From Turneriellaceae bacterium (GTDB taxonomy: Bacteria; Spirochaetota; Leptospiria; Turneriellales; JAOUFE01): a stretch of DNA of 64,000 bases. Of this stretch, positions 1-16,177 are shown piece after piece; position 1 is the stretch's first letter, and each line of letters starts with the position of its first letter. The DNA lies in contig JBNLDQ010000003.1 of assembly GCA_050304475.1 (NCBI GenBank), forward strand, positions 143,833 to 207,832, written 5' to 3'. Position numbers and translations under genes: made by a program. The notes beneath the pieces are model-generated. The model was not told the origin of the DNA, searched no databases, and saw only the letters and a program-made list of their open reading frames with translations.

Positions 1-47
1 CAACCATTATCCTTTTTTGCATGGCAATATTTGCGGTATGCAAGCCG

Positions 48-80
48 CCGGCCGTTCCTTACGGCCGGTTTCGCCTGTTC
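48..80 (+). terminator. Candidate Rho-independent terminator for a + strand gene ending upstream of the window
   Basis: Perfect 8-bp GC-rich stem CCGGCCGT (48-55) / ACGGCCGG (61-68) with a 5-nt loop TCCTT, followed by TTTCGCCTGTTCATTTATT. Confidence 0.45.
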
Positions 81-122
81 ATTTATTGCTTGCCATATTT
101 ACTTTTGAAACCAACTTACCCA

Positions 123-494
123 ATGAAATTTTTTACCGTTCTCTCGCTTGGCTTTTTATTTTTGCATTGTTTTGCCCTTTTCGCCGTTCCGTTTGAAGGG
201 GCCAGATTGACAGAAGCAAACATCAAAAGTTTGCATAATGGAAAATGCGAGGAATTTAGCGCAAACAGCATGTCCGCAAAATCCGCCATGCCCGGCAAGC
301 TCATCGATATCGTAAGCCAGGAAAATTTTATCACGGTAAAAATATTGAGCTGCACGATAAAACAGGTCACGTTTGAATATTACTTGATTCTCGAAAATAA
401 CATATGGATCATGTTCGACGCCGAATCTATCGTAATTACCGATAACAAAACAGATGACCAAAACGGTAACCAAACTACCGGTCAAAATCATTAA
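123..494 (+). CDS. Hypothetical secreted protein; start chosen at the internal ATG after the terminator hairpin
   Basis: From ATG 123 the product begins MKFFTVLSLGFLFLHCFALFAVPFEG, which is signal-peptide-like. The longer 21..494 version would read through the hairpin at 48-68. An antisense ORF (156..491) is an equally long competitor, so the strand is uncertain. Confidence 0.4.
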   Translation: MKFFTVLSLGFLFLHCFALFAVPFEGARLTEANIKSLHNGKCEEFSANSMSAKSAMPGKLIDIVSQENFITVKILSCTIKQVTFEYYLILENNIWIMFDAESIVITDNKTDDQNGNQTTGQNH

Positions 495-2360: not shown

Positions 2361-5225
2361 ATGCCAAACCCGATTATACAGAATAAAATCTACATTCCGC
2401 CGCCCGGCCAAAAAGCAATCATCCGATCAACTCTCATTGAACGTTTAAATGAAGGCCGGCATGGCAAACTGACCTTGATTTGCGCCCCCGCCGGTTACGG
2501 AAAATCCACGCTGATCAGCGAGTGGCTGACAGCTACCCGCACAGCGGCGTCCATGGTATCTCTTGATTCCGGCGATAACGATTTTGTCCGGTTCATGACC
2601 TATATGCTGGCGGCGGTCCGAAGCATCTTTCCCGAAAAGGGAGAACGGCTGATGGAAATTGCGCAAAACCAGGCGCCGCAAGCCGAGCCGATGGAAACCT
2701 TCATGGCCACCCTGATCCATGAATTAAATGAAATCGAAAAACCGTACGTGCTGGCGCTGGACGATTACCATGTCATTGAAAACCCGAAAATTAACGAAGC
2801 GGTCTCTTTTCTCATCGAACACCTGCCCTTCTCCATGCAACTGGCAATTTCAACCCGCGAAGAACCCGATTTACCCTTGGCTAAATTTCGGGCCAGGGGA
2901 CAATTAACGGAACTGCGGCCCAACGATTTGTGTTTCAACAAAACAGAGACCTCCCGGTTTTTTCTCAAAACCATGGGCCTGCACCTTTCCGAAAACGACA
3001 TTGAAGCGCTGGTCAACCGAACGGAAGGGTGGATTGCCGGGCTAAATCTGGCGGGAATCTCCATGCTGGCCGCAGACAACCCCCATGAGTTTGTTCTTTC
3101 TTTTGCAGGCAGCCACCACTTTGTCATGGATTATTTAATGGAAGAAGTTTTCCAAACGCAGCCCGAAACGGTTCAAAATTTTCTTTTGAGTACATCCATA
3201 CTAACGTCAATGTGCGGGCCGTTATGCGACGCCGTAATGGAATCGAACGCAGGGCAAGGGCAAGAGCTCCTGGAAAAATTAAACCAGGCAAATATGTTTC
3301 TGGTTCCCCTGGACAATGAACGAAAATGGTACCGTTACCACCATCTCTTTCATGACCTTCTGCGGCAAAGGCTTCGCAAGAAGACCGAGCCCGAGTCCCC
3401 CCAAACTCCGAATCCCCTGGAACATGCACCCGAAATAACCGGAAAAAAAACAAACCGCAAATTCGATTTGCCGAACCTGCATTTGCGCGCCGGCAAGTGG
3501 TATGAAAAAAACAACCGTTTTGCCGAAGCGTTCATTCACTCTCTCGAAGCCGGCGATACCGATAGAGCGGCAACCATGGCCCAAATCGGATACGCCGAAA
3601 TGGAAGCGGCATTTCAGCTGCCGGCATGGCTGGAACTGGTAAAAAAATTACCGAAAGAAAATCTTTATCATCACCCCTTCTTGTGCTACCAGTATGCGGC
3701 CGCCTTAACCGACGTCGGAGAACTGGAAGCAAGCGAAGAGTGGTTAAATCATGCCCAGGAACGGATTGACAGCGAAAAAAGCCCTTCGCCAAACCCCGAA
3801 AGCTGGACCGCCTTGCGCGGCAATATCGCCCGCCAGCGAAGCCATAACGCGCAATCGCGCGGCGATATCCCTTCAACGATAAAGTACATCAAACAAGCCC
3901 TGCAACTCATGCCAGGCGACGATTACCTGGGGCATGGAGCGATGGAAGGCTCGCTGGGTTTGATCCACTGGGTCGACGGCAACTTACCGGCGGCAAAAGA
4001 GTCGTTTCAAAAAACGGTACGCTATTGGCAAAAAGCCGAAAACCTGAATTTTGAAATAGCGACCGGGTACGCCCTAGCCGACCTGGAAACGGCCTGCGGC
4101 AAACTGACCGGAGCGAGAGATATTTGTCACAAGTTGCTGCTCCTCGCCGATGAAAAAAAAGTCAAAGATTTGCATGGCGCGGGCCTGGTACACTTTCGCC
4201 TGGGGATGATTTACCACGAAATGGGCGAGACGGAAAAATCGGATATCCATCTCCGCATCAGCAAAGATATTGCCAACCGGTGTTCCTCGATTTATTGGCC
4301 CTGGATATGGAACCGGGGGCAGGCTATTATAATGGAATCCGCGGGAGAGATGGAAAACGCCTTGGAACGGTTGGAAGAAGCCAAACGCAAAGGAATACGA
4401 AGCTCCGAACCGAACTTGCGCCCCATGGAAGCGATGAAAGCGAAAATTTTTGTAAAAATGGGACGCTTGAAAAAAGCCATGGAATGGGTTGAAGAAAATC
4501 ATATTCCCGATCTGGAAATTTCATACCGGCATGAATTTGAGCTCCTCACTCTCGTCAGAATCACAAGAGAACAAATTACAAAAACGCCTGACGGCGCTAA
4601 CCTTGGTGGCAATATGTCAATCAACCGGGCTTTTCATTTGCTCGATAAACTTTTAGAAAGGGCAAAAAAAGAAAAAAGATACGGCAGCGTCATTGAAATC
4701 CTGGTGCAAAAAAGCCTGACCTGCTCTGCCGCCGGCGACTTTCCGGCGGCATTTGACGCCCTGACCCAGGCGCTGGAAATCGGAGAGCCCGAACGCTTTG
4801 CCCGCGTGTTCATTGACGAAGGTTTGCGCATGATGGAACTTCTGGCCCGACTCAATGATTTGCTCAAAGAGAATCCGGCCGAAGGGGTAGCGCCCGAAGT
4901 TAAAAAATATACCGGGCACCTGCTTTCTTTTTTTCAAAAACAACCCCGGCAAGAAATACCGGCGGTCAAAAGTTCGCCAAAAAAATCAATACGCAATGTA
5001 GAAACGCCGGCTCCCGCATTGGTAGAGCCGTTAAGCGACCGTGAAGTTGAAGTGTTGCATCTTGTCGCGTCCGGGCTTTCCAATAAAGAAATCGGCGATC
5101 GCCTTTCTTTGGAACTCAATACGATCAAGGGTCACAACCGCAATATCTTCAGCAAACTGGGCGTCCGAAGAAGAACCGAAGCCGTTGCCCGCGCCCGCCA
5201 ACTCGGTTTACTATCTGGCCTTTAA
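2361..5225 (+). CDS. MalT-like large ATP-binding LuxR-family transcriptional regulator (LAL/STAND type)
   Basis: Walker A CAPAGYGKST and Walker B-like VLALDDYH. A long helical/TPR-like middle region. C-terminal LuxR HTH: LSDREVEVLHLVASGLSNKEIGDRLSLELNTIKGHNRNIFSKLGV. Start placed at ATG 2361 (MPNPIIQNKIYIPPPG, like MalT N-termini), which avoids overlap with the upstream gene. Confidence 0.9.
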   Translation: MPNPIIQNKIYIPPPGQKAIIRSTLIERLNEGRHGKLTLICAPAGYGKSTLISEWLTATRTAASMVSLDSGDNDFVRFMTYMLAAVRSIFPEKGERLMEIAQNQAPQAEPMETFMATLIHELNEIEKPYVLALDDYHVIENPKINEAVSFLIEHLPFSMQLAISTREEPDLPLAKFRARGQLTELRPNDLCFNKTETSRFFLKTMGLHLSENDIEALVNRTEGWIAGLNLAGISMLAADNPHEFVLSFAGSHHFVMDYLMEEVFQTQPETVQNFLLSTSILTSMCGPLCDAVMESNAGQGQELLEKLNQANMFLVPLDNERKWYRYHHLFHDLLRQRLRKKTEPESPQTPNPLEHAPEITGKKTNRKFDLPNLHLRAGKWYEKNNRFAEAFIHSLEAGDTDRAATMAQIGYAEMEAAFQLPAWLELVKKLPKENLYHHPFLCYQYAAALTDVGELEASEEWLNHAQERIDSEKSPSPNPESWTALRGNIARQRSHNAQSRGDIPSTIKYIKQALQLMPGDDYLGHGAMEGSLGLIHWVDGNLPAAKESFQKTVRYWQKAENLNFEIATGYALADLETACGKLTGARDICHKLLLLADEKKVKDLHGAGLVHFRLGMIYHEMGETEKSDIHLRISKDIANRCSSIYWPWIWNRGQAIIMESAGEMENALERLEEAKRKGIRSSEPNLRPMEAMKAKIFVKMGRLKKAMEWVEENHIPDLEISYRHEFELLTLVRITREQITKTPDGANLGGNMSINRAFHLLDKLLERAKKEKRYGSVIEILVQKSLTCSAAGDFPAAFDALTQALEIGEPERFARVFIDEGLRMMELLARLNDLLKENPAEGVAPEVKKYTGHLLSFFQKQPRQEIPAVKSSPKKSIRNVETPAPALVEPLSDREVEVLHLVASGLSNKEIGDRLSLELNTIKGHNRNIFSKLGVRRRTEAVARARQLGLLSGL

Positions 5226-5251
5226 AAAAAACGCAAACCACACCCGAATCC

Positions 5252-5296
5252 CGCAGACAACGACACTTTAGTGTCTTGCGCCTTTTCCTGTTTTTG
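5252..5296 (+). terminator. Weak candidate terminator after the LuxR-family gene
   Basis: Core stem GACAC / GTGTC with TTTA loop and imperfect flanking pairing, followed by the T-rich CCTTTTCCTGTTTTTGTG. Confidence 0.3.
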
Positions 5297-5321
5297 TGCT
5301 ATCTTCTGCGCTATGCAAAGC

Positions 5322-5344
5322 CGCGGTAAGAACTTCTTACCGCG
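5322..5344. promoter_or_regulatory. Perfect inverted repeat (candidate operator or 5' leader hairpin) upstream of the TonB-dependent receptor gene
   Basis: CGCGGTAAGAA c TTCTTACCGCG: 11-bp arms around 1 central nt, 55 nt upstream of ATG 5399. Confidence 0.4.
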
Positions 5345-5398
5345 CGATGCGACAAAAACAAAAGGCAAATAAAAACAAAGGACTGCAAGGAATATCCT

Positions 5399-7870
5399 AT
5401 GAAACTGATAATGAAAATAAAAAATATACGATACGGTATCTTGATGCATGGCATTTTCTGGGGCATGGGCATTGCCCCCATTGCATTCACTGCATTAGGA
5501 CTAACGTCCCAACTGCAAGCGCAAGAAAACCCGGAATATACGCTGCAAGGGCAGGTATCGGATCCAATGGGCGATCCTCTTGAATTTGCGACTATTGCCA
5601 TTGTCGAATTAAAACAAAAAACCGAAATCGGCGAAAACGGCGCATATGCGATCCGCCTGCCCGCAGGCGAATATACCGTAATTGTCAGCTCGCCCGGGAT
5701 GAAACCCCACCGGGGCACGCTTCAATTGAGTCAAGATCAAACGCTTGATATTGTTTTGGAACCTCACACCATTGGCGGCTCTTCCGTTACAATCGAAGGA
5801 GAACGCGATATCCAGAAGATTTCGCGTTATACGATGGCGAAAGAAGAGATGAAAAATGTACCGGCCTCTTTCGGCGACTCTTTAGGGGCCATTGCAACCA
5901 TGGCGGGGATCGAGCAAAACGGTTTGTTTGGCTCGATGGCGATCCGGGGGCTTGGCGCCACCGAACACCGGTTTTATGTCGACGGCGTTCCTATCCGCGA
6001 ACCCCGGCATTTCGGAGCGCTGCATAGCATCATCAATAACGAAGTTGTTCAAGAAATCGACATCTACTCGTCCGCTTTCCCGGTCGAGTACGGAGCCCCG
6101 ATCGGCTCGGTCTTGCAGTTCAACACCGTCGACCAGGTTGACAAAAGAGAAATCTATGCCGACCTGAGTCTGCTTTCGTTAAATGCCACCATACTCTCTC
6201 CGATTCGCAAACCGGATAGCTCCTCTTCAAACGCAAAAACAGCCGGGTACTGGATCATTGGCGGACGTTACGGGTACACGTCGCTTTTTGCCCCGGCGTT
6301 GGTGAAAGCGATGACAGGCGACGACGGCATTGAGTTTCATAACATTTATTACGACTACCAATTCAAAGGCAAATATTTTCTCAACAAAGACCATTCCATC
6401 ACCATGCTCCTTTTCGGGGGCTACGATAGCGCCACGTTAGACGGCAAGATGCGCGTAAAGACAAAAGAAGAGCTCATTGACGAAGGCGCCGACCCGTTCT
6501 CGCTCGATATGTACGGCCATTTTGACAACAGCTATCACTCTCAATCAATCACCTGCACCTATTTCCCTTCGGACAAATTAAAAAACGAAATGAAACTCTA
6601 TACTTCGCTCAACGAATTGAATATGCATTGGCTTTACAAATCAAAAGAAGTGGCCGAATGGGGCAAAGGAACGACAATCTCGACAGACCCGAATATTTAC
6701 GGTATCAAAGACGATCTTTACCTGGACCTTTTTGATCAAGTCTATTTGATCAAAGCCGGGGCTGATCTCACCTATTACGACTTCAAAGCCTCGGGGAACA
6801 CCATTGTACCGGCCGCTCAAAATACATGGTATATTGACACGCCTGACCCGGCAGACCCCGACCTCTATACCCTTGCCGAAATTTCACAAAGCGCCGTGAA
6901 CAACACTCTTGGCGGTTACCTTGAAAACCGGGTAAACTACCAAGGCCTGACCGTCGCAGGAGGATTTCGGACAGACTATTTAAAAACGCAAAATCAAACG
7001 ATTTTCGACCCGAGAGGGCGCGCCTCGTATACGGCCCCAACGGAAACGACCATATCCGTCGCGGGGGGCCAATACAGCTCCTTTTTTCAAACCAACGTCT
7101 ACTATTTTGAATACCTCCCCCAGATCTTTGAACTGGATTTAAAACCGGAAAGAGCGGTTCACCGTTCCGCCGCCATCGAGCAACGGTTCCTGGAAAAATA
7201 TACCATTACGCTCGAAGGCTACATGAACGACTTTTCCGACCTGGTTCAGGTCGGGGCCAAGCCGAATGTTCTCGCCTCAAATCTGGGCGAAGCGCGAACC
7301 AGGGGCGTAGAGATCACGGTAAAAAAAGACAAAATAACCCGCAAACTCGACTACTACGGCTGGATGAATTATACATACGGGATTTCGGAACAAAAGTCGC
7401 ACCGCCCCGCCGACCCGTTGGGCGAAAAGTGGATTTCGGGCGATTTTGACCGGCGCCACTCCCTGAAAGCCGTAAGCGGGATCCGCTATGGCGCCAGCCT
7501 GTTGGGTCTGCGTTTTCAATATTACAGCTCTTACCCGGAAACGCCCATTGTCGGCGATGACGGGGGAGTTGCCTATACGCTGAGCGGCAGCGCGAACCCG
7601 AATCGCATCCGGTACGCTCCCGCCTATGGCGATAAAAATTCCAGGTTTCGTTCCCCCCAGCACCAACTGGATGTCCGCTTTTCTCGCACGTCGCAATACA
7701 AGTGGGGTTCGTTAAACTGGTACGTCGAAGTCATCAACATCTATAACTTTAAACCGGACGACACCCAGGAGTGGGCATACAACAAACCGTACAGCGACAA
7801 CAACCCGAGTTACGGGAGCAGCGCGGATTTTGCCTTCTTGCCAAACTTCGGAGTCGAAGCAAAATTTTAA
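5399..7870 (+). CDS. TonB-dependent outer-membrane receptor with an N-terminal carboxypeptidase-regulatory-like domain
   Basis: Signal-like N-terminus. CarboxypepD_reg-like segment (GQVSDPMGDPLEFATIAIVE...YAIRLPAGEYTVIVSSPGM). Plug-like segment (VPASFGDSLGAIATMAGIEQNG...MAIRGLGATEHRFYVDGVPI). Long beta-rich barrel ending in the terminal ...FGVEAKF. Confidence 0.9.
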   Translation: MKLIMKIKNIRYGILMHGIFWGMGIAPIAFTALGLTSQLQAQENPEYTLQGQVSDPMGDPLEFATIAIVELKQKTEIGENGAYAIRLPAGEYTVIVSSPGMKPHRGTLQLSQDQTLDIVLEPHTIGGSSVTIEGERDIQKISRYTMAKEEMKNVPASFGDSLGAIATMAGIEQNGLFGSMAIRGLGATEHRFYVDGVPIREPRHFGALHSIINNEVVQEIDIYSSAFPVEYGAPIGSVLQFNTVDQVDKREIYADLSLLSLNATILSPIRKPDSSSSNAKTAGYWIIGGRYGYTSLFAPALVKAMTGDDGIEFHNIYYDYQFKGKYFLNKDHSITMLLFGGYDSATLDGKMRVKTKEELIDEGADPFSLDMYGHFDNSYHSQSITCTYFPSDKLKNEMKLYTSLNELNMHWLYKSKEVAEWGKGTTISTDPNIYGIKDDLYLDLFDQVYLIKAGADLTYYDFKASGNTIVPAAQNTWYIDTPDPADPDLYTLAEISQSAVNNTLGGYLENRVNYQGLTVAGGFRTDYLKTQNQTIFDPRGRASYTAPTETTISVAGGQYSSFFQTNVYYFEYLPQIFELDLKPERAVHRSAAIEQRFLEKYTITLEGYMNDFSDLVQVGAKPNVLASNLGEARTRGVEITVKKDKITRKLDYYGWMNYTYGISEQKSHRPADPLGEKWISGDFDRRHSLKAVSGIRYGASLLGLRFQYYSSYPETPIVGDDGGVAYTLSGSANPNRIRYAPAYGDKNSRFRSPQHQLDVRFSRTSQYKWGSLNWYVEVINIYNFKPDDTQEWAYNKPYSDNNPSYGSSADFAFLPNFGVEAKF

Positions 7871-7936: not shown

Positions 7937-8740
7937 ATGAAAAAAGCACTTGGTATAAAAGTTTTAATCGCATTGTGGGCGCTAACCCAGTTTCATCTGC
8001 ATGCAACGGAAACGACAAAAGAGACGCCAACGGAAATCGAAACCAAAGCGGCGGCAGAGCCTGTAACGGAAACGGCAACGACAACGGAAACTGCCCGGAA
8101 AACCGATCCAGAAACCGGAACAAACCCGGGCGACTTCCCCGTCTCCGAAAAAGATGAGATTGAGACGGGGTTTGAAAACGGGGCGAGCCCCCGTTCCGAA
8201 AATCTCTTTTCCGTTATTCAACAGGGCGGCTGGGTCATGTTCTTTCTTTTAGGAATGCTCCTTTTAGGGATGACCCTGGTCGGAGAGCGGTGCATCTATT
8301 ACGTCGCCCACAAGTCCTGGGAAAAGGCCCCGCTCGAAAAACATCTATATAATACGTTTCAAATGAGCGGCGCAAAATACAAAGAAGAGATGGAAACCGA
8401 TCTGCGCGGGCATCTTCAACTCTACTTCAATCGCCTGGAAAAGAGCCTCAACCTGATTCACGGCATCGGAAATCTGGCGCCGCTGATCGGATTTTTCGGA
8501 ACGGTCATTGGTATGATCCGGGCTTTTGCCGCCATTGCTTCGGCAGCCGTTGTGAATGCCAAGGTTGTCGCCGTGGGCATTCAAATGGCGCTGGTGACGA
8601 CAGCCGGTGGTCTTGCCGTCGCGGTTTTAACTCTTTCTTTTTATCACTTGTTTTCTCATATCGTGCAGTCGCAGTACGCCTTTTCGGATGAAGTCATTCA
8701 AACGCTCGTGGGCAAACTGCCGCCATATTCGGAGAAGTAA
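7937..8740 (+). CDS. exbB: MotA/TolQ/ExbB-family proton channel with a T/E/P-rich N-terminal extension
   Basis: GGWVMFFLLGMLLLGMTLVGERCIYY and LIHGIGNLAPLIGFFGTVIGMIRAFAAIA are typical ExbB/TolQ TM2-TM3 signatures. Confidence 0.9.
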   Translation: MKKALGIKVLIALWALTQFHLHATETTKETPTEIETKAAAEPVTETATTTETARKTDPETGTNPGDFPVSEKDEIETGFENGASPRSENLFSVIQQGGWVMFFLLGMLLLGMTLVGERCIYYVAHKSWEKAPLEKHLYNTFQMSGAKYKEEMETDLRGHLQLYFNRLEKSLNLIHGIGNLAPLIGFFGTVIGMIRAFAAIASAAVVNAKVVAVGIQMALVTTAGGLAVAVLTLSFYHLFSHIVQSQYAFSDEVIQTLVGKLPPYSEK

Positions 8741-8743
8741 CCC

Positions 8744-9184
8744 GTGAACTTCATCCAAAACCCCTGGCTGGCGAAACCGAAAGCAATACGAAAGACAATG
8801 CTTCATACCGAAATGGAAACATCCGCAATCGGAGATATGGCTTTTTTGCTGCTGATCTTTTTTATTGTAACCAGTTCATTTTTAATGAGAATGGGGATTT
8901 TTCTCTCATTGCCTTCGGACTCGGGGGGAGCCATAAAGGTCGAAAAGAAACAGCTTTTCGAGATCACCCCGCTAGGCAACGGTTATCTGGTAGACCAAAA
9001 CCGGGTAACCGGCCTTGAGGCATTGGAACTTTTACGGCAAAAAAAAGAATCGCAAAACAATCTCATTTATGTAGTATACATGAACCCATCGTTAAAATAC
9101 GAGCGGCTGATTGACGCCCTTTCCCTGGCCGGAAAGGCGGGCGTTCAAAACATTTCGGTTAAAGATAAAGTAAAAGATAAATAA
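8744..9184 (+). CDS. exbD: ExbD/TolR-family biopolymer transport protein
   Basis: GTG start 4 nt after the exbB stop. Single TM IGDMAFLLLIFFIVTSSF followed by a periplasmic domain. Confidence 0.85.
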   Translation: MNFIQNPWLAKPKAIRKTMLHTEMETSAIGDMAFLLLIFFIVTSSFLMRMGIFLSLPSDSGGAIKVEKKQLFEITPLGNGYLVDQNRVTGLEALELLRQKKESQNNLIYVVYMNPSLKYERLIDALSLAGKAGVQNISVKDKVKDK

Positions 9185-9185
9185 G

Positions 9186-9569
9186 ATGCGAAAGATCAGC
9201 GTAAAACCGGTCACAGTAGGGGCCGCCATGGCCGACATGGCAATGCTTTTGCTGGTATTTTTTATGACGACGACTACCACCGAACCGCCCGCCGGCGTCG
9301 ACGTTGAACCGCCTTCCGGTTATGTTCAGCCGGCCGAGCAAGAGAGTCTGTATATTACCGTCTCGACAGAGGGCGCGCTTTATTGCGACGGGCAAGCGGT
9401 AACCATGCAAGCTTTACGCAATATATTGGCTTTCCGGGCGCATGAAAAAGAGACGCCTGTTTCAATTACCGCCGACAAAAACCTCGATTACGGCATTGTC
9501 TCGGGTTTGCTGAAAACATTACAGCAAAGCGGATTTTTAAATGTCACTTTTATGGCTGAAGAAAAATGA
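9186..9569 (+). CDS. exbD: ExbD/TolR-family biopolymer transport protein (second copy)
   Basis: MADMAMLLLVFFMTTTTT TM segment and ExbD-like periplasmic domain (PVSITADKNLDYGIVSGLLKTLQQSGF). Confidence 0.85.
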   Translation: MRKISVKPVTVGAAMADMAMLLLVFFMTTTTTEPPAGVDVEPPSGYVQPAEQESLYITVSTEGALYCDGQAVTMQALRNILAFRAHEKETPVSITADKNLDYGIVSGLLKTLQQSGFLNVTFMAEEK

Positions 9570-10225
9570 TGGAAATGATACATAGAACGAGCCGCCGCAT
9601 AGGCTTTGCGCTTTTGCGCAGGTGCGTTAAAAACGTGAAAGCAGAGACAAAAAATCACCCGCAAGCAATATCATTTTGCTTCTCGGCGATAGCCATGATT
9701 TTTGTTTTGTTTTATTCCCCGTCAGACAAAGCGGTAAAAGACCGCGACATCGCCAATGCGTTTCGCATGGTCAATATCGAGAAAATCGCTTTACCGAAAA
9801 GAAAGACAAAAAAACAGATCGACGTAAACGCGGAAAAAGAGACGGTTCCCGATGAGACCGAACGCGCCGAAGGGTTGAGCGAGTCCGAAGACGCGGTAGA
9901 CCTCTCTTTTTTTCCGAATGTTGTCCCCCCTCGCCCGGTCGGAAAACTGCAAAAAATTTACCCGGAAGAGGCGCGCCGGCGCGAGGTAGAAGCGACAGTC
10001 TACGTCAGATTGTTGATCGGTAAAAAGGGCGAAGTACAAACGGCGCAAGTGTTAGCCACCCATTTGAGCAAATCTCTCCCCCAGGATGCAGCCGAAACGC
10101 TAAAGGCAAAGTTTGCCGGGGCCGCCGTGAAAATATTACAAAATGCAAGATTCAGCCCGCCCATTGTCGACGGGAAACATGTATCTATTGTAATGGAGAT
10201 GCCGTTAAAATTTGAGTTAAATTAA
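9566..10225 (+). CDS. tonB: TonB-family energy transducer (C-terminal TonB domain)
   Basis: ATGA overlap with the upstream exbD. One N-terminal TM and a charged linker. C-terminal PPRPVGKLQKIYPEEARRREVEATVYVRLLIGKKGEVQTAQV...FSPPIVDGKHV is typical of the TonB C-terminal domain. Confidence 0.8.
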   Translation: MMEMIHRTSRRIGFALLRRCVKNVKAETKNHPQAISFCFSAIAMIFVLFYSPSDKAVKDRDIANAFRMVNIEKIALPKRKTKKQIDVNAEKETVPDETERAEGLSESEDAVDLSFFPNVVPPRPVGKLQKIYPEEARRREVEATVYVRLLIGKKGEVQTAQVLATHLSKSLPQDAAETLKAKFAGAAVKILQNARFSPPIVDGKHVSIVMEMPLKFELN

Positions 10226-10251: not shown

Positions 10252-11127
10252 TCATGCATGATCATAAAAAGCCAACACTTCGGCAGCCCTTTGCGAAACA
10301 AAGGCGCTGCCTTCTTTTTTCGCCAACGGAATGATTGTGTTGTTTATTTTTCTTTCAAGATCCCAGCCGGCGTTGGGCTTGCGCTTGCTTCGCAACAGGT
10401 CAAGCGCCCTGCTTAACCGTATCTCTTTTACATTTTCTCTTTTCAGCAGCCACAAAATTTCAAGAAAATCGGATTGATACATATTCGGGAAAGTCAGCTT
10501 TTTAATGTTCGTATGCAGAAAGTTTGATTTTTCATGAGAAGAAAAACAAACCTCATGGCGCAAAATAAAATCAATGCAATTGCCCAGCAAACGCTGCGCG
10601 CTCTTTGTTCTGTTTTTGCGCGGAACAAATGATAAACCTTTCAGAAGTTTTACAACCCCCCAAAAACAGGTATGCCTGCCATAGCAACTCCGGTTAGAGT
10701 AATAAGGAGCGCCGGCCGGGGTTTTATAATCGCCGTCATCAAACCGTTGGTACAAAACAAAAAAATCAATCGCCTTGTTTACCGTTTCGGTCTGGTTCAT
10801 CTTAAAATATTGCAGCAGATAAATCATATTGCCATTTAAACACGGGATCGGAAAATGAGATTTGCCTATCGTAAAAATATTGTTTTTTTGATCGTAAAAA
10901 TGGTTTGCAATGGCTGTTAGCGGTTTTTTTAGTTTTTCATTTTCGGCCGGGCTTTGTATGTCGGCAAGAAAAATCAGGGTCCAAAGTGTGGCGCTATAGA
11001 CAGGGCTGTAGTGCTTAAACCCGGGGTACCCCTTCTCTTTTTCGTTGAGCACATTCCAGCAACCCGTTTCATCTTGCAATTTTATAATATCATTAGTGAT
11101 TTTTTCAATAAGAGAGTTCAGGTCCAT
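10252..11127 (-). CDS. Alpha/alpha-toroid-like (squalene-cyclase / prenyltransferase repeat-like) protein of unknown function
   Basis: N-terminal LQDETGCW fits the QW motif Q-x3-G-x-W, and C-terminal KPNAGWDL is a related repeat. Regularly spaced aromatic-rich helices (ATLWTLIFLADI, NGNMIYLLQYF, AIDFFVLYQRF, CFWGVVKLLKGL, SDFLEILWLLK). The functional assignment is tentative. Confidence 0.6.
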   Translation of the reverse strand: MDLNSLIEKITNDIIKLQDETGCWNVLNEKEKGYPGFKHYSPVYSATLWTLIFLADIQSPAENEKLKKPLTAIANHFYDQKNNIFTIGKSHFPIPCLNGNMIYLLQYFKMNQTETVNKAIDFFVLYQRFDDGDYKTPAGAPYYSNRSCYGRHTCFWGVVKLLKGLSFVPRKNRTKSAQRLLGNCIDFILRHEVCFSSHEKSNFLHTNIKKLTFPNMYQSDFLEILWLLKRENVKEIRLSRALDLLRSKRKPNAGWDLERKINNTIIPLAKKEGSAFVSQRAAEVLAFYDHA

Positions 11128-11265: not shown

Positions 11266-12066
11266 TCATCCCTTTAACAAGGGCAACGCATTCATAAAAA
11301 CCGCCCCCGTAAGCCACGTTGTAACAAATACTACAATCGCGCCGCTTACCGGGAAAAAACTTTGAGCCGTTGTTACGGCGCCGGCTTCAACCATATGGCT
11401 TACGACAAGGCCCGAGATACTCATGCAAAGGGTCAGGTAAAAAAGAGAAACCGCCAACCCAACGGCCCGGGGGCGTGTACGCAGGTAAAATATAAGCGGG
11501 CGATATGGCGCTTTGGCGTAGAGCCGGGACAGAAAAGCTTCTCCGTCTTTTTGCGGGAAAGGGAGCAGCGCATAGAGAGCAATGAAATCAATGGCAATCA
11601 TGGCCGCAATGGCAGGCGCGGTGGCAGGCCCGCCAAAGGCATAGCCAAAGGAAGCTGAAAGCGATGCAAAGAGCAGTTGAAAAAAAACGCCCGCCAACGG
11701 CAGGGTTACCGGTAGCATCGTATTTGTTTCCGTGTCTATCCGATATGACGAGATTGCGAACAGTTGAAAACCCTTCAGACAGATCATCGCTCGGTGGTCC
11801 TTGCGGTAGACGGAAGCAACGATATGACCCAACTCATGAACATACATTGAAATGATAATGAGCCCGGTCACGAGCAAGCCGGACAAAATAGAGCCCTCCA
11901 TGATACCGGCAAAGTGAACCCGAGACAGGAGATAACATTGTACGGCAACCGCCAGCGCAAGAAGAGGGGCGATCCTGTATTTTTGCAGCCAGGGCGAAAC
12001 CACGGGATAATAGCGAGATGGGTTTTGCAGCAAAAAAAGAATTTTTATCGTTTTATCGCTCATCAA
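11266..12066 (-). CDS. Polytopic membrane zinc metalloprotease, M50 / site-2-protease-like (candidate leader peptidase)
   Basis: HExxH within a TM helix (ISMYVHELGHIVASVY) and a downstream LLPFPQKDGE resembling the S2P NxxPxxxLDG motif. Six or more hydrophobic segments. Confidence 0.75.
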   Translation of the reverse strand: MMSDKTIKILFLLQNPSRYYPVVSPWLQKYRIAPLLALAVAVQCYLLSRVHFAGIMEGSILSGLLVTGLIIISMYVHELGHIVASVYRKDHRAMICLKGFQLFAISSYRIDTETNTMLPVTLPLAGVFFQLLFASLSASFGYAFGGPATAPAIAAMIAIDFIALYALLPFPQKDGEAFLSRLYAKAPYRPLIFYLRTRPRAVGLAVSLFYLTLCMSISGLVVSHMVEAGAVTTAQSFFPVSGAIVVFVTTWLTGAVFMNALPLLKG

Positions 12067-12094
12067 CCTTTGGCCCCTCTTTTATAAAAGCGGT

Positions 12095-13552
12095 TCAACA
12101 AGCCTGCGAGCCCGCCTCTATAAAGCCTTTTTTAGCGCCTTTAGTCTCTTTGCAAGAGCAGCTCTTTCCTTTTTTCTCTTGCTTTTTCTCAAGCAGATGT
12201 TCGGCTTCTAAAAAAAGGTCGGGCGCTTTTGCCTGGAACGTTTCTTTAAATTCAAAACAGTGCGGCGCATTTAATTTACCGGAAGCCAACTCAGCCTGAT
12301 GAGCGCACCCGCCGGCGCAAAGAAAAATATATTCGCACTCCAGGCATTCGGGAATCGAAGCGGCGTCCCGCCCTTCCCATTCCTTGAGTCTTTCTTCCCC
12401 CAGGTTAAAATCAGGGTGGTAGAAACCGGTTTTGCGCTCCTGTACGCCAAGCTCGTCCCAGCAAGAGTAGATATTTCCGTCTGCGGCAAAAATGTACGTG
12501 TTCCGGTGCGCGCCGCACGGGTTCGCCTTAAGACCGGGGAACTTTGCATTTGAAAAGAGCAACGACTTGAAAACACCCAAAGAAGCAAAGCCGGTAGAGA
12601 GCATATTGGGTAAAATTTTTTCCCCCAGGCCTTCTATTGTTTTCTGCAAGCTCATCGGTGTAACGCGTTTTTTAGTCGCGGTTGCAGTGTGGGTGGGGTG
12701 CGCATATGGGCGGAAAAATTCATACTTATACCAACCTTGAGAAACATAAAACCGGTGCAGTTCTTCCAGTTTTTCGATATTATTGCTATCGACATTGCTT
12801 CGGACCGATACACTGCATCCTTTTTTAAGGGCAAGGTCGATGCCGTTACACACTTGTTGAAAAGATTTGCTCTTCTTTACGCCATAGCGCCGGTTGTCAT
12901 GAACTTCTTCGGGGCCATCCAGAGTAACCTGCATCGACCGGATTTTATCTTTACCCAAAAGATCTTCGTAATGCGGCAGGTCAACGCCGTTGGTTACGGC
13001 AAAAAAAGAAAACCCCAGAGAGTTCCCTTTTTCGAGAATATACTTTACCAGCTCATGATTCTCCGCCATCAAGGGTTCGCCGCCATACAGGGTAATTGTC
13101 TTTTCATGCTTCCGGTATTTTTTTGTTAGCCCGGTAATCGCTTTAAACATAGAGTCAACATGGGCTTTTGTCATCGTCTGGCGTTTTTCTTCGACGTTTT
13201 CCCGGATCACGGGTTTTTCATAACAATAGCTGCACCGCAGTTGGCACCCCAATGTCGGGGCGATAATGAAACCGGTCGTCTTTTGCGAACTTTGGTTGAG
13301 AAGCGTTGATATTTTTTTTACCAGCGCTTGCTCTTCGGAAACGCTTTTAGAAGTCAAATACCCGCGGGTAACCAGTTGCTTGACGGTACTCGGGTCAAGA
13401 TCATCCGGGCTATCGTTTTGAAGCGACTCCAGCACGGCAATATCCACCTTATCTACCGCGCCGGAATAGCCCTGGATCAAAACTCCGAATTTTTTTTGAA
13501 GCACAGGCGTATAGATATTATACGAGCTGGCTCGAAGCGCACTTACCTTCAT
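12095..13552 (-). CDS. Radical SAM / SPASM-domain peptide maturase
   Basis: CxxxCxxC cluster motif (GCQLRCSYC). GGEPL motif (LYGGEPLM). Complete SPASM pattern C-x12-G-x4-C (CGAHRNTYIFAADGNIYSC) then C-x2-C-x5-C-x3-C (CLECEYIFLCAGGC) with a later Cys (PHCFEF). About 95 aa of N-terminal extension before the rSAM core, RRE/PqqD-like in position. Confidence 0.9.
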   Translation of the reverse strand: MKVSALRASSYNIYTPVLQKKFGVLIQGYSGAVDKVDIAVLESLQNDSPDDLDPSTVKQLVTRGYLTSKSVSEEQALVKKISTLLNQSSQKTTGFIIAPTLGCQLRCSYCYEKPVIRENVEEKRQTMTKAHVDSMFKAITGLTKKYRKHEKTITLYGGEPLMAENHELVKYILEKGNSLGFSFFAVTNGVDLPHYEDLLGKDKIRSMQVTLDGPEEVHDNRRYGVKKSKSFQQVCNGIDLALKKGCSVSVRSNVDSNNIEKLEELHRFYVSQGWYKYEFFRPYAHPTHTATATKKRVTPMSLQKTIEGLGEKILPNMLSTGFASLGVFKSLLFSNAKFPGLKANPCGAHRNTYIFAADGNIYSCWDELGVQERKTGFYHPDFNLGEERLKEWEGRDAASIPECLECEYIFLCAGGCAHQAELASGKLNAPHCFEFKETFQAKAPDLFLEAEHLLEKKQEKKGKSCSCKETKGAKKGFIEAGSQAC

Positions 13553-13573: not shown

Positions 13574-14053
13574 CTAATCAATGTCGACCAGAAGATCGTT
13601 TACGCCAATACCGATTTCACCGGGCTGCAAGCCGGTATTTGACGTCAATTGCTCTTCAAGCTCGGCCCATTTTTTATCTTTGCGGGCTTGTATCATTTTT
13701 TTCTTGTCATTGACCCTGGTAAAAGAAAGGTACAGCGGGGTCGGCCTGTCAAGGTTAGAGCTTTTTTTCACCAACCGGTAGACGCTGACCGAATCGATCC
13801 CTTCTTCATTGTCCAACCATGCAAGCGCATCGTTTACGGCTTTTTCCGTTTGAACCCTGTCGCCCTGTTTCGGGCTGATGGGCGTAATCACGGTAAAAGG
13901 GGTGAGATGCAAGACATCGCCGAGATCTTCCTTAATTTGCTTTTTCGCCGCCTGGCGGCTCTCTTCGTATACTTTTCTTTTTTTGGTCTGCCCTTCTTCT
14001 TTGTGAAGATTGAGGTGTTTGGTAATTTTATCAATGCGCTCTTTTCGTGCCAT
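13574..14053 (-). CDS. Hypothetical protein (159 aa), distant paralog of the 14511..14984 product
   Basis: Start moved to ATG 14053, which has SD AAGGA 7 nt upstream. The longer 14203 start would overlap the precursor gene by 98 nt. Lys-rich N-terminus. By-eye similarity to the 157-aa neighbour. Confidence 0.7.
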   Translation of the reverse strand: MARKERIDKITKHLNLHKEEGQTKKRKVYEESRQAAKKQIKEDLGDVLHLTPFTVITPISPKQGDRVQTEKAVNDALAWLDNEEGIDSVSVYRLVKKSSNLDRPTPLYLSFTRVNDKKKMIQARKDKKWAELEEQLTSNTGLQPGEIGIGVNDLLVDID

Positions 14054-14105
14054 ATTATTTTCCTTAATTATAAATGATGATTGCCAATTGTTTGCGCTTT
14101 TAACG

Positions 14106-14468
14106 TCAGCTGGAAGCCATAAAGCAATCGCTGCCGCAACTGCCAAAATCGACATAACATTGTGTGCCGCATTGCGAGCATATGTCACCAATGGCGCATG
14201 CATCGGCCGTACAGTTCGTTACGCAATCGGACATGCAAGAGCAGTCCATCATACATGAGAGGTCCATGCTACATCCGGTCGCAGTCGATGTTAAGCTGCC
14301 GGCCTCATCCGAAAAATCCAGGGGACAACTCGTGCTGATCGGTTCGATGCGCAATTGCGTTTGTTGAGAATCCCCGGAATCGAGCATTTGTTCAAGCTGC
14401 TCAACGCTGACATTGTCAAATAATGTTTTGTTTAACGGTTTTAATTGATTTTCGTTTTTCTTTTCCAT
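14106..14468 (-). CDS. Cysteine-rich RiPP precursor-like peptide (120 aa; 13 Cys in the C-terminal 73 residues; C-x-x-D/N repeats)
   Basis: SD GAAGGA 7 nt upstream of the ATG. Cys-free leader-like N-terminus MEKKNENQLKPLNKTLFDNVSVEQLEQMLDSG. Core SCPLDFSDEAGSLTSTATGCSMDLSCMMDCSCMSDCVTNCTADACAIGDICSQCGTQCYVDFGSCGSDCFMASS. Lies two genes upstream of the rSAM/SPASM gene. Confidence 0.8.
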   Translation of the reverse strand: MEKKNENQLKPLNKTLFDNVSVEQLEQMLDSGDSQQTQLRIEPISTSCPLDFSDEAGSLTSTATGCSMDLSCMMDCSCMSDCVTNCTADACAIGDICSQCGTQCYVDFGSCGSDCFMASS

Positions 14469-14510: not shown

Positions 14511-14984
14511 TTAAATTAAACCTAGCAATGTTCCGTTGACAACAGATTGACCGTCGTCCATTTTTTTCTTCTCCGAACAAAGGGCCGAAATTTGTTTTTC
14601 AATTTGCGACAAGTTCGGGCTATTGGCCGCTTTTTTCATCGCGCCCCGGTGGCGTGCAATAATGATCATGACCAACTCGGGCTCTGCAAGCCGGTTGTTT
14701 TTCCCTTCATTCACCTTCTCATAGAGCATGACATAGTTAATGCTCTTTTCTTGTTCAAGAATAGCAACCGCCTCAACAAGCAAATCGAGAACATCTTGTT
14801 TTTTACCGTCAAGTGGCTGAAACGGCCACTTGTAAAAAACGGGAGATTTTTCCAGAATAAATTCGTAATCTTTTTTAATCTCCTTTGCGGTCTCTATTTT
14901 CGCTTCTTTGATAAAATCATCAAAACCGGGTTTACCGCGGTAATTGTCGATTTGCGTTTTTATGGTTTGCGCGTAGTCCTGCAT
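14511..14984 (-). CDS. Hypothetical protein (157 aa), first gene of the operon, distant paralog of the 13574..14053 product
   Basis: SD GGAGG 4-5 nt upstream of the ATG. No recognisable motif. Confidence 0.75.
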   Translation of the reverse strand: MQDYAQTIKTQIDNYRGKPGFDDFIKEAKIETAKEIKKDYEFILEKSPVFYKWPFQPLDGKKQDVLDLLVEAVAILEQEKSINYVMLYEKVNEGKNNRLAEPELVMIIIARHRGAMKKAANSPNLSQIEKQISALCSEKKKMDDGQSVVNGTLLGLI

Positions 14985-15412
14985 AGACCCTCCGAAATTA
15001 TTAACATTTATCTACGAAAGTGCTGTGTCTTTGCGGGTAAAAACAAAGACATACCAGATTTGACCAAGAGTTAAAAAAAAGAAAACATTTTAATACGTAT
15101 TTTGTTATTATTTCTGCGTATCATTTTACTTTTATCTTTAACTATATCGCTGTTGATATCATATTGGCATTAATCATAGACTGAGGATATATTTATCATC
15201 CCCCTGTGCCGGCACAACATTAATTTTAAAATTTATTAAATCCTTAGGAAAAAGAGTAAAAATGTCAATTTTTCTATTATAGTTTTAGAATTGCAGAATT
15301 GGCAAAGTTTCTCATTTGTGCCAGGCTGTGCCCGGCTGCAAAACGCACTCAAAATGGAGGAGGCCCGCCAGGCGTTTGAGAAATACTACGCGATTTCCGC
15401 GGGATCGTTTTT

Positions 15413-16177
15413 TTAGCACCCGCCGCCAATCGCGACGTACAGACCCATCTCTTGATCCGTTTCAATATGCAGACAATCGCCCTGATCTACGCACCCGTCA
15501 GGCGCACCGTAAATGCATTGATAGTAATGATCTTTCCAGTATTCGTCAGACTCCAGCTTGAATTCAAAATCTTTATACCGCGAGTCCATATTGACGCCAA
15601 TTAAAAATGCCTCTTGAAACGTATAATCGGGTAGATACAGGCGTTCGCCAAAAGACTCATATCCGGTATATTCGGACAAAATAATATTCTTCTCGAATTT
15701 TGTAATGAGTTGTTTCAAATAGGCATCGCTTTGCCGCTCTTCCGTGCCGCCTTCTTCAATAACATGGGTTTTCTCTGTTTGCCGAAAAGTTGCAAAGGCA
15801 TAGTCTTTTATCGATCGAATATCATATTTCGGGCCTTTTAAGCGTGATAAAAACCCTGAAAAGATATAACCCGTCTTACCCTCGAAATTTACTTTTGCCC
15901 AATAGTTTTCCAAACCTTGAAATGTGCTTTTTACTTTTGTAAATTCAAGCACCTGAACCGTTGCATTATACGGTAGCAAACCCCGTTTTTCGGATTTACT
16001 GTCCGGTTGCTTTCTAACGCTTAATCCCGAATGCGCTAAAACAAAGTATTGGCTTGATTGATAAAAACTTTTATCAGGCAGATTCGGTACAACCGGTTTT
16101 GCGCCGGTTATGACAAAAAAAGCGACAATAAAGAATGCCGGCATACCGGCCGATTTATACACTTTAGGATTTGCCAT
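15413..16177 (-). CDS. SH3b-domain-containing membrane-anchored or secreted protein
   Basis: N-terminal hydrophobic anchor (MPAFFIVAFFVITGA). Bacterial SH3-like segment GLSVRKQPDSKSEKRGLLPYNATVQVLE...YWAKVNFEGKTGYIFSGFL. Confidence 0.7.
   Translation of the reverse strand: MANPKVYKSAGMPAFFIVAFFVITGAKPVVPNLPDKSFYQSSQYFVLAHSGLSVRKQPDSKSEKRGLLPYNATVQVLEFTKVKSTFQGLENYWAKVNFEGKTGYIFSGFLSRLKGPKYDIRSIKDYAFATFRQTEKTHVIEEGGTEERQSDAYLKQLITKFEKNIILSEYTGYESFGERLYLPDYTFQEAFLIGVNMDSRYKDFEFKLESDEYWKDHYYQCIYGAPDGCVDQGDCLHIETDQEMGLYVAIGGGC

Follow-up and report, generated by a model that had tools for sequence, protein, structure and literature searches.

We describe a putative peptide maturase encoded in a 64,000-nucleotide stretch of DNA, hereafter the window, from a Turneriellaceae bacterium (assembly GCA_050304475.1, contig JBNLDQ010000003.1, positions 143,833 to 207,832). 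The gene is an ATG-started open reading frame (ORF) of 485 codons at 12095..13552 on the reverse strand; Pfam and NCBIfam matches, together with an AlphaFold2 (AF2) model, describe its product as an enzyme with a radical S-adenosylmethionine (SAM) domain and a SPASM domain, preceded by a predicted RiPP recognition element (RRE)—RiPPs being peptides made on the ribosome and modified after translation. As a whole, the data are probably explained by a three-domain RiPP maturase that staples the adjacent Cys-rich peptide with ranthionine-type thioethers. The components of this explanation carry different weights: we are confident, short of certainty, that the enzyme is a leader-dependent maturase of the adjacent peptide, we consider it probable that it forms thioethers, and we lean slightly toward ranthionine over sactionine links. 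The enzyme itself falls in an unstudied branch of the known RRE/radical SAM/SPASM kind.

The motifs expected of both the radical SAM and the SPASM domain are present in the translation, as a sequence-only reading of this DNA had claimed for each. The SAM-cluster motif CQLRCSYC reads as C103-x3-C107-x2-C110 (13223..13246, reverse strand) and is invariant in 103 sequences; by analogy with the radical SAM family, its three Cys are the expected cluster ligands. The complete SPASM signature, with seven Cys, follows as NPC346-x12-G359-x4-C364, C403-x2-C406-x5-C412-x3-C416, and C432, so that the domain spans C346 to C432 (12257..12517, reverse strand). Over residues 99-268, Pfam Radical_SAM (PF04055) reaches 49.8 bits, above its cut-off of 29.5, which places the protein in the superfamily; over residues 346-430, TIGR04085, the SPASM model of NCBIfam, reaches 50.5 bits, above its cut-off of 27, which places it in the subfamily. 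Conservation extends beyond the clusters; in the GGEP motif (G157-P160), G158, E159, and P160 are invariant in the 103 sequences and G157 nearly so. Among the 105 relatives that belong to none of the named comparison groups, each of the ten cluster Cys is kept by 102-104. By motif correspondence with the characterized maturase CrpC, the auxiliary clusters would be held by C346/C364/C416 (AuxI) and C403/C406/C412/C432 (AuxII).

About 95 residues precede the radical SAM motif. This extension, which the earlier reading had singled out as RRE-like, is real and is conserved across 29 aligned sequences: G31, D34, L60, R63, G64, Y65, T67, and E74 are invariant, and the most conserved residues lie on strand 3 (G31, A32, D34) and by helix 3 (R63-T67 and E74). 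Conserved columns, a domain model, and fold matches together outline an RRE-like domain at residues 1-91 (13280..13552, reverse strand) with three strands followed by three helices. In the AF2 model of the isolated domain, made for residues 1-96 from a 90-sequence alignment built from relatives' loci, the pLDDT (predicted score in the local distance difference test) is 92.8, with strands at 12-17, 22-27, and 33-37 and helices at 38-45, 54-63, and 71-91. An exhaustive VIA-align comparison of this model with 48,161 PDB representative chains returned the N-terminus of TigE (Z 7.7, 92 residues) and TbiB1 with leader (5.9) as top matches, then MibB (5.2), lasso B1 (5.2), the PbtF RRE (5.0), MccB (4.7), and PqqD (4.5), with McbB (4.4), TbtB (4.1), NisB (3.5), CteB (3.3), and SuiB (2.9) lower down—all below 8, a range in which Z may reflect a common arrangement. 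RRE-bearing RiPP proteins make up roughly 17 of the 50 chains listed from that search, by hand count.

The full-length enzyme tells the same story. Its AF2 model, from a 103-sequence alignment, has a pLDDT of 90.9 and places three strands and three helices in residues 12-91, followed by a radical SAM barrel, the SPASM domain, and a long helix at 435-463. The best Foldseek match of this model is the thioether synthase CteB (5WHY, E 3.7e-17), and VIA-align superposes the two from the N-terminus onward (Z 27.9, root-mean-square deviation 3.4, 381 residues, model 9..448 against chain 1..448). TigE follows the same extent (Z 23.7 over model 2..451); the match to anSME, at Z 25.4 over 332 residues, covers model 91..453 only. 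Profile searches agree: the family profile of 103 sequences finds CteB first among PDB sequences (4.3e-50, positions 16-445) and anSME next (3.3e-37, positions 96-456). The enrichment of RRE proteins among the fold matches and the full-length superposition on CteB are why we read residues 1-91 as an RRE-type fold, a reading that the confident models support. The earlier proposal therefore fares well here, in that the top fold matches of the N-terminus are RiPP leader-binding domains rather than folds unrelated to peptide binding. By extension, the domain would bind the leader of the precursor peptide.

The candidate precursor is encoded beside the maturase at 14106..14468 (reverse strand) as a 120-residue peptide, recognized from its ORF, a leader hidden Markov model (HMM) match (E 2.7e-13), and a leader alignment; it consists of the leader LKPLNKTLFDNVSVEQLEQML and an 80-residue core. 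Thirteen Cys occur in the core, nine of them with Asp, Asn, or Gln at +3 (C-x-x-D/N/Q). Shuffled cores contain a mean of 1.9 such motifs, and none of 20,000 shuffles reached nine; other Cys offsets in the same core give 0-2. NCBIfam has no family for any of 11 precursor peptides searched.

What joins this peptide to the enzyme is the leader. A common motif, '[KR][PS]LN..[ST]L....[SP][IV]E[EQ]LE..L', is present in peptides of the source locus and of the loci of the two closest maturases (L010 and L089); with an iterated leader HMM, 81 of 168 loci show peptides carrying 'LN..L....S.EELE.RL'. These peptides track the enzyme phylogeny closely—one lies within ~3 kb of the enzyme in 46 of the 56 rows of the query's clade in the FastTree phylogeny, and nearby in 0 of the 55 rows of four other clades (20, 19, 8, and 8 rows). 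Training of the iterated HMM drew on hits of the HMM itself; the clades were defined from the enzyme tree alone. Of the indirect evidence that the leader is read by the RRE, this co-occurrence is the strongest. The same enzyme clade also occurs in gut Bacteroidota loci (L016, L027, L031, L032, and others), among them those of Paraprevotella clara, Phocaeicola, and Segatella copri, where precursor leaders read ...SLN..L..EF.[IV].ELE.RLETDPL..GGL.. with a possible double-glycine site; no NCBIfam model matches the gut Bacteroidota enzyme or its peptide.

Among curated families, the maturase comes nearest to maturases of Cys-rich peptides, which it matches near full length, N-terminus included: Clo7bot maturase (TIGR04334, 125.8 bits against a cut-off of 600), TIGR04463 (123.7 against 525, residues 11-419), and CefB (NF038107, 118.6 against 600). 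PapB (NF047865) scores 98.2 against 340 over residues 100-430 only, and anSME (TIGR03942) and SCIFF maturase (TIGR03974) score 74.7 against 349.45 and 55.6 against 425. We therefore rejected membership in the Clo7bot, CefB, and PapB families and in TIGR04463, the family of CrpC, each on a score below its cut-off. Membership in the SCIFF maturase (CteB) family was rejected on its score and on a separate position in both trees described below; for anSME, the presence of an RRE counts as a further ground. The relatives behave in the same way. We tested 90 of 150 distinct relatives against NCBIfam with a reporting limit of 1e-60; the top score in any maturase family was 386 bits, where 600 would be needed, and one outlier fell below the MoaA cut-off. 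Since no tested relative reaches a family cut-off, the clade can be called uncurated.

Two trees place the enzyme within this uncurated group. The FastTree phylogeny holds 124 rows: the query, 114 of 146 distinct relatives (those shorter than 400 residues, containing X, or near-duplicate were dropped), five TIGR03974 members, one TIGR03942 member, and three near-misses to those two families. A quick IQ-TREE run used 58 rows hand-picked from the FastTree clades, and MoaA of the source genome served as outgroup. In both, the maturase groups with L089 and L010 (support 100 and 99), and this trio lies inside a 56-row clade with FastTree support 99, represented by 25 rows with support 96 in IQ-TREE. 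That clade belongs to a larger one (support 97-98) that stands apart from the SCIFF maturases, the anSME rows, and a TIGR04463/Clo7bot-like group. The separation covers all five SCIFF maturases in FastTree and the four of them kept in IQ-TREE, and the TIGR03942 member L175 in both trees. Rather than falling firmly within the anSMEs, an outcome the earlier reading had named as contrary to its proposal, the enzyme is placed apart by both methods, and anSME aligns to it only from residue 91. The trees, whose rows exclude PapB, QhpD, PqqE, and AlbA, leave the order of the major groups unsettled. No true TIGR04463 member was found in 301 genomes of the source phylum, hence the alignment contains no CrpC-family sequence, and no PapB-family member above cut-off was found in five Firmicutes genomes.

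No second copy of the maturase was found in the source genome, and no orthologue closer than 34% identity in 40 relatives' genomes. The only other SPASM-like radical SAM ORF of the source genome (~460 residues; contig C5:7523-7936, L002) is very distant from the maturase (29% identity over 147 residues), and its long branch falls close to the rows of anSME and SCIFF.

We propose the following course of the reaction. The N-terminal RRE (residues 1-91) would dock the conserved leader of the 120-residue precursor, and the cluster on C103/C107/C110 would split SAM to a 5'-deoxyadenosyl radical, and this radical would remove a hydrogen from an acceptor within the Cys-rich core. One of the Cys of the core, probably bound to the open iron of AuxI (with its three ligands C346/C364/C416), would capture the carbon radical to give a thioether, and AuxII (C403/C406/C412/C432) would pass the electron on. 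The product would be a string of small rings, each from a Cys to the Asp, Asn, or Gln at +3 and attached at a non-alpha carbon (ranthionine type), of the kind reported for PapB and CrpC. Tandem rings of this spacing are the likeliest product because the core has nine C-x-x-D/N/Q units.

Residues near the active site offer a second view of the chemistry. For CteB, six residues of 'catalytic site proximity' are given in the accessible part of PMC10288494 (F112, F152, T186, S210, H363, and Q364), and we mapped these positions onto the maturase through the CteB alignment; five SCIFF maturases return CteB's F-F-T-S-H-Q, which validates the mapping. The maturase reads Y111-Y156-T187-T210-W365-D366, a profile compared here with the aligned groups rather than with the reference profiles of PMC10288494. 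Of the eight TIGR04463/Clo7bot-like rows, five show the form [YF]-[YF]-T-T-W-[NDE]; in the anSME member the six positions are Y-Q-T-S-D-F.

Which thioether is formed, and whether one is formed at all, are the main points on which other explanations compete. A sactisynthase would have the same architecture and substrate and would attach the Cys sulfur to the alpha-carbon of the acceptor; CteB-like enzymes and sactisynthases have a common architecture that sequence alone separates poorly, and some sactisynthases resemble ranthisynthases in full-length sequence, according to PMC10288494, while the attacked carbon is not fixed by any result computed here. We nevertheless regard a sactisynthase as unlikely. 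In published descriptions, the regular Cys-(+3) Asp/Asn/Gln pattern goes with non-alpha links in CrpA, and does so as Cys/Asp or Cys/Glu pairs in PapB; the six-residue profile, moreover, matches the TIGR04463/Clo7bot-like group, whose characterized member CrpC is assigned there as a ranthisynthase. A little less probable still is chemistry without thioethers—Cys oxidation of the anSME kind, C-C or C-O crosslinking, or epimerization, with the core Cys serving for disulfides or metal binding. The reactions of SPASM enzymes are indeed diverse, anSME ranks second among both the structural and the profile matches, further genes of the cluster may have tailoring roles, and no family membership is established for the maturase. 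Against this, neither tree groups the maturase with the anSME member, its score in TIGR03942 is 74.7 bits against 349, anSME has no RRE, and proximity residues 2, 5, and 6 differ from those of anSME. The seven-Cys SPASM domain also leaves AuxI with three ligands, as in CrpC, for which the accessible description proposes a substrate Cys on the open iron.

Several results weigh against ranthionine-type stapling by an RRE-guided enzyme. The evidence for the RRE is structural only, with a modest Z for every match of the isolated domain (7.7 at best). Nothing reached E ≤ 0.001 when Foldseek was run on the same domain; the list is headed by TbiB1 with leader (the best, at E 0.02), lasso B1, TigE, ThcOx, LynD, and CteB. 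Pfam gave no PqqD match on residues 1-95 even at E ≤ 10; many RREs escape the Pfam PqqD model. The closest relatives in a search of 5.8 billion clusters are only 41% identical and have no functional name or are labeled 'radical SAM protein', one of them from a Methanotrichaceae archaeon. No curated NCBIfam cut-off is reached by the maturase (at best 125.8 bits against 600) and no equivalog cut-off by any of the 90 tested relatives, 85 of which have no family match at 1e-60. At the active site, proximity positions 5 and 6 are W and D in the maturase, H and Q in CteB. In the substrates, Asp at C+3 is only moderately enriched across the clade (15.3% against a background of 8.7%, in 86 distinct cores), and the precursor cores of the closest clusters, L010 and L089, show different patterns. 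Finally, the link type made by CrpC is called 'suggestive' by the authors of PMC13692751.

A separate question concerns the C-terminus. As the sequence-only reading had described, the protein ends in a basic tail with three extra Cys outside the SPASM domain: residues 455-485 (12098..12190, reverse strand), an unaligned Lys/Cys-rich segment of low model confidence with the 31-residue sequence EKKQEKKGKSCSCKETKGAKKGFIEAGSQAC and Cys at 465, 467, and 485. The tail frame crosses A5/A6 homopolymer runs, and the other two frames give a different, Cys-free ending; a one-base shift at these runs (12098-12200, reverse strand) would produce a Lys/Ala/Leu-rich, Cys-free end (...RAALAKRLKALKKAL). A Logan contig of one sequencing run (X1) spans 11900-12498 with 0 differences and 0 gaps to the window. 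Because this run may be the source sample, probably with the same reads, the match counts as a second assembly and not as an independent sample.

A function for the tail can be imagined, as an extra metal or Fe-S site or as a tethered pseudo-substrate capping the open AuxI iron. It has three Cys within 21 residues, the segment after the last SPASM Cys is long (53 residues, against a median of 26 and a range of 17-114 in 120 relatives), and all but one of the eight closest relatives (P0002-P0006, P0008, and P0009; the exception is P0007) have at least one Cys near the C-terminus, although these are close kin and hence not independent. We consider a functional tail very improbable. After the last SPASM Cys, the 29 relatives do not align, and neither position nor sequence is conserved; of 120 rows, 87 have no Cys in this segment, 18 have one, 11 two, three (the maturase included) three, and one has four. 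AF2 confidence is 68 for residues 461-470 and below 50 for 471-485, and Pfam finds no family in the last 45 residues. The tail is probably a lineage-specific, disordered extension without a required role, and nothing that we found suggests otherwise.

The maturase gene lies in a tight same-strand run of six genes, encoding in order a 157-residue protein, the precursor, a 159-residue paralogue, the maturase, an M50-like protein, and a 291-residue protein. A promoter-like site, TTGCCA-18-TATAAT (15276..15305, reverse strand), lies upstream of the run and matches at 11 of 12 positions in a consensus scan. The two accessory genes dufA (14511..14984, reverse strand; 157 residues) and dufC (13574..14053, reverse strand; 159 residues) flank the precursor gene and are distant paralogues (22% identity, pairwise E 3e-7). 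For dufC, we rejected a longer ORF of 209 residues (13574-14203) as the actual gene, both for its overlap with the precursor gene and because an AAGGA-type ribosome-binding site precedes the internal ATG at 14053.

The dufA/dufC family is very rare: a search of 1.84 billion representatives gives just 13 clusters at E ≤ 0.001, and homologues adjoin the two closest maturases, L010 and L089. Pfam ABM matches three of 12 members weakly (best E 2.8e-4). A word-indexed homologue search with the 157-residue protein returned only itself, the ESM Atlas search with the 159-residue paralogue gave eukaryotic hypotheticals with a best score of only 0.88, and the family profile found nothing below E 0.05 among PDB sequences. 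Downstream of the maturase, a polytopic membrane protein (11266..12066, reverse strand) carries HELGH and a downstream PFPQKDG, motifs resembling those of M50/site-2 proteases; Pfam Peptidase_M50 matches it at E 1.4 only, and the L089 homologue is 30% identical (E 4e-11). It may be a leader peptidase, if the protease-like motifs reflect its role. The last gene (10252..11127, reverse strand) encodes a 291-residue look-alike of prenyltransferase/squalene-cyclase repeats, for which the first ESM Atlas match is a 'Prenyltransferase family protein' (score 0.97, a lead only); Pfam has no match, and similarity to the C-terminal half of a 707-residue protein of L089 is marginal (E 0.032).

The related loci vary on this arrangement. 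In L010 the order is accessory protein, 74-residue Cys-rich peptide, and maturase. The metagenomic locus L089 (1104-9999) holds an accessory protein, seven tandem Cys-rich precursors, two maturases, a 707-residue fusion, and an M50-like gene. Its precursors have the common leader ...LNK.SLGNLSIEELESRLQMEELD.RGEMWTGC, one copy being broken by N's; its two radical SAM/SPASM genes (2831-4255 and 4246-5586) differ from each other, and an FAD-reductase-like ORF is also present. The fusion, in the place equivalent to 10252-11127, joins a terpene-synthase-like half (DDVKD) to a squalene-cyclase-repeat-like half. Around the operon of the window, the product of the upstream gene 15413-16177 (reverse strand) carries an SH3_3 domain of the bacterial type (Pfam E 4.1e-12), and four ORFs in the converging downstream region 7937-10225 (forward strand) resemble an ExbB/ExbD/ExbD/TonB set by eye.

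RRE/radical SAM/SPASM thioether synthases are already known, and the enzyme type is no surprise. The useful part is the clade, which has no curated NCBIfam model and is tightly coupled to a recognizable leader motif; the motif and the presence of members in cultured gut Bacteroidota make the clade easy to mine and test. With its nine regular C-x-x-D/N/Q units, the precursor of the window stands at the extreme, and it would be a clean substrate for studying how a single active site can make a long series of small rings. Should the tail or the rare accessory proteins prove important, SPASM enzymology would gain a new element; our results give no reason to think so. One can sketch a much broader proposal—an undescribed RiPP class with the leader 'LN..L....S.EELE.RL(ETDPL)', widespread in gut Bacteroidota and in sediment and archaeal metagenomes, with, in this rare sub-branch, as many as nine four-residue Cys-(+3)Asp/Asn/Gln thioether rings in tandem on a single 120-residue peptide, in which two ABM-like proteins, an M50-type intramembrane protease, and a prenyltransferase-like protein cooperate, the product could be lipidated as well as multiply stapled, and the tail acts as a tethered ligand of the open AuxI iron. 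That all of these elements are true together is unlikely.

We found no paper describing the leader family or the clade; the compendium of PMC10288494 (~15,000 RRE-radical SAM proteins) and the CrpA-homologue dataset of PMC13692751 may list the clade. A Bacteroidales radical SAM enzyme differs from the maturase in the accessible description of PMC10352776, with its CxxxCxxC at residue 80 and a shorter RRE. Among proteins of known structure, TigE (PDB 8VPO) is the best match of the isolated N-terminal domain and also a full-length match, at 12-15% identity, a comparison that is structural only. The anSMEs (PDB 4K36-4K39; TIGR03942) have the radical SAM and SPASM core in common with the maturase and give its best single-sequence PDB match (1.8e-10); they differ in lacking the N-terminal RRE, with alignment starting at residue 91, in belonging to a separate clade, and in their proximity residues.

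Closer parallels come from enzymes that make thioethers in Cys-rich peptides. The spacing in PapA, the substrate of the PapB/freyrasin system, is C-x3-D, against C-x2-D/N/Q in the precursor of the window. The likeness to this ranthipeptide system (NF047865) lies in Cys-to-Asp/Glu thioethers set in repeated short motifs, as far as the consulted description of it goes; the family model covers only residues 100-430 of the maturase, below its cut-off. CteB (PDB 5WHY/5WGG), the SCIFF/thermocellin thioether synthase of TIGR03974, has the same RRE, radical SAM, and SPASM order and likewise a seven-Cys SPASM domain, and positions 1-4 of the proximity set are similar (Y, Y, T, T in the maturase; F, F, T, S in CteB). 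The two enzymes are, however, only 16-19% identical and fall in separate clades, and the substrate here is a 120-residue, 13-Cys peptide with a different leader, in contrast to the six-Cys SCIFF peptide.

CrpC of Methanococcus voltae, a member of TIGR04463, offers a detailed parallel. The accessible part of PMC13692751 gives it an RRE at residues 1-92, a SAM cluster on C104/C108/C111, AuxI with three Cys and AuxII with four, and three bound [4Fe-4S] clusters; it puts thioethers, judged to be of the ranthionine type, on CrpA, whose repeats carry C-X-X-Q/D. The maturase differs in that its score does not make it a member of TIGR04463 and in its accessory genes, and on the published outline CrpA has a mass of 28.8 kDa and its N-terminal domain is folded, whereas the window encodes a 120-residue peptide. 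On the same outline, the substrates agree in plan—an N-terminal recognition part followed by C-terminal C-X-X-Q/D repeats in CrpA, to be compared with the C-x-x-D/N/Q core of the precursor. The enzymes agree as well, with an RRE of ~92 residues, almost identical numbering and spacing of the cluster Cys, and three AuxI and four AuxII Cys.

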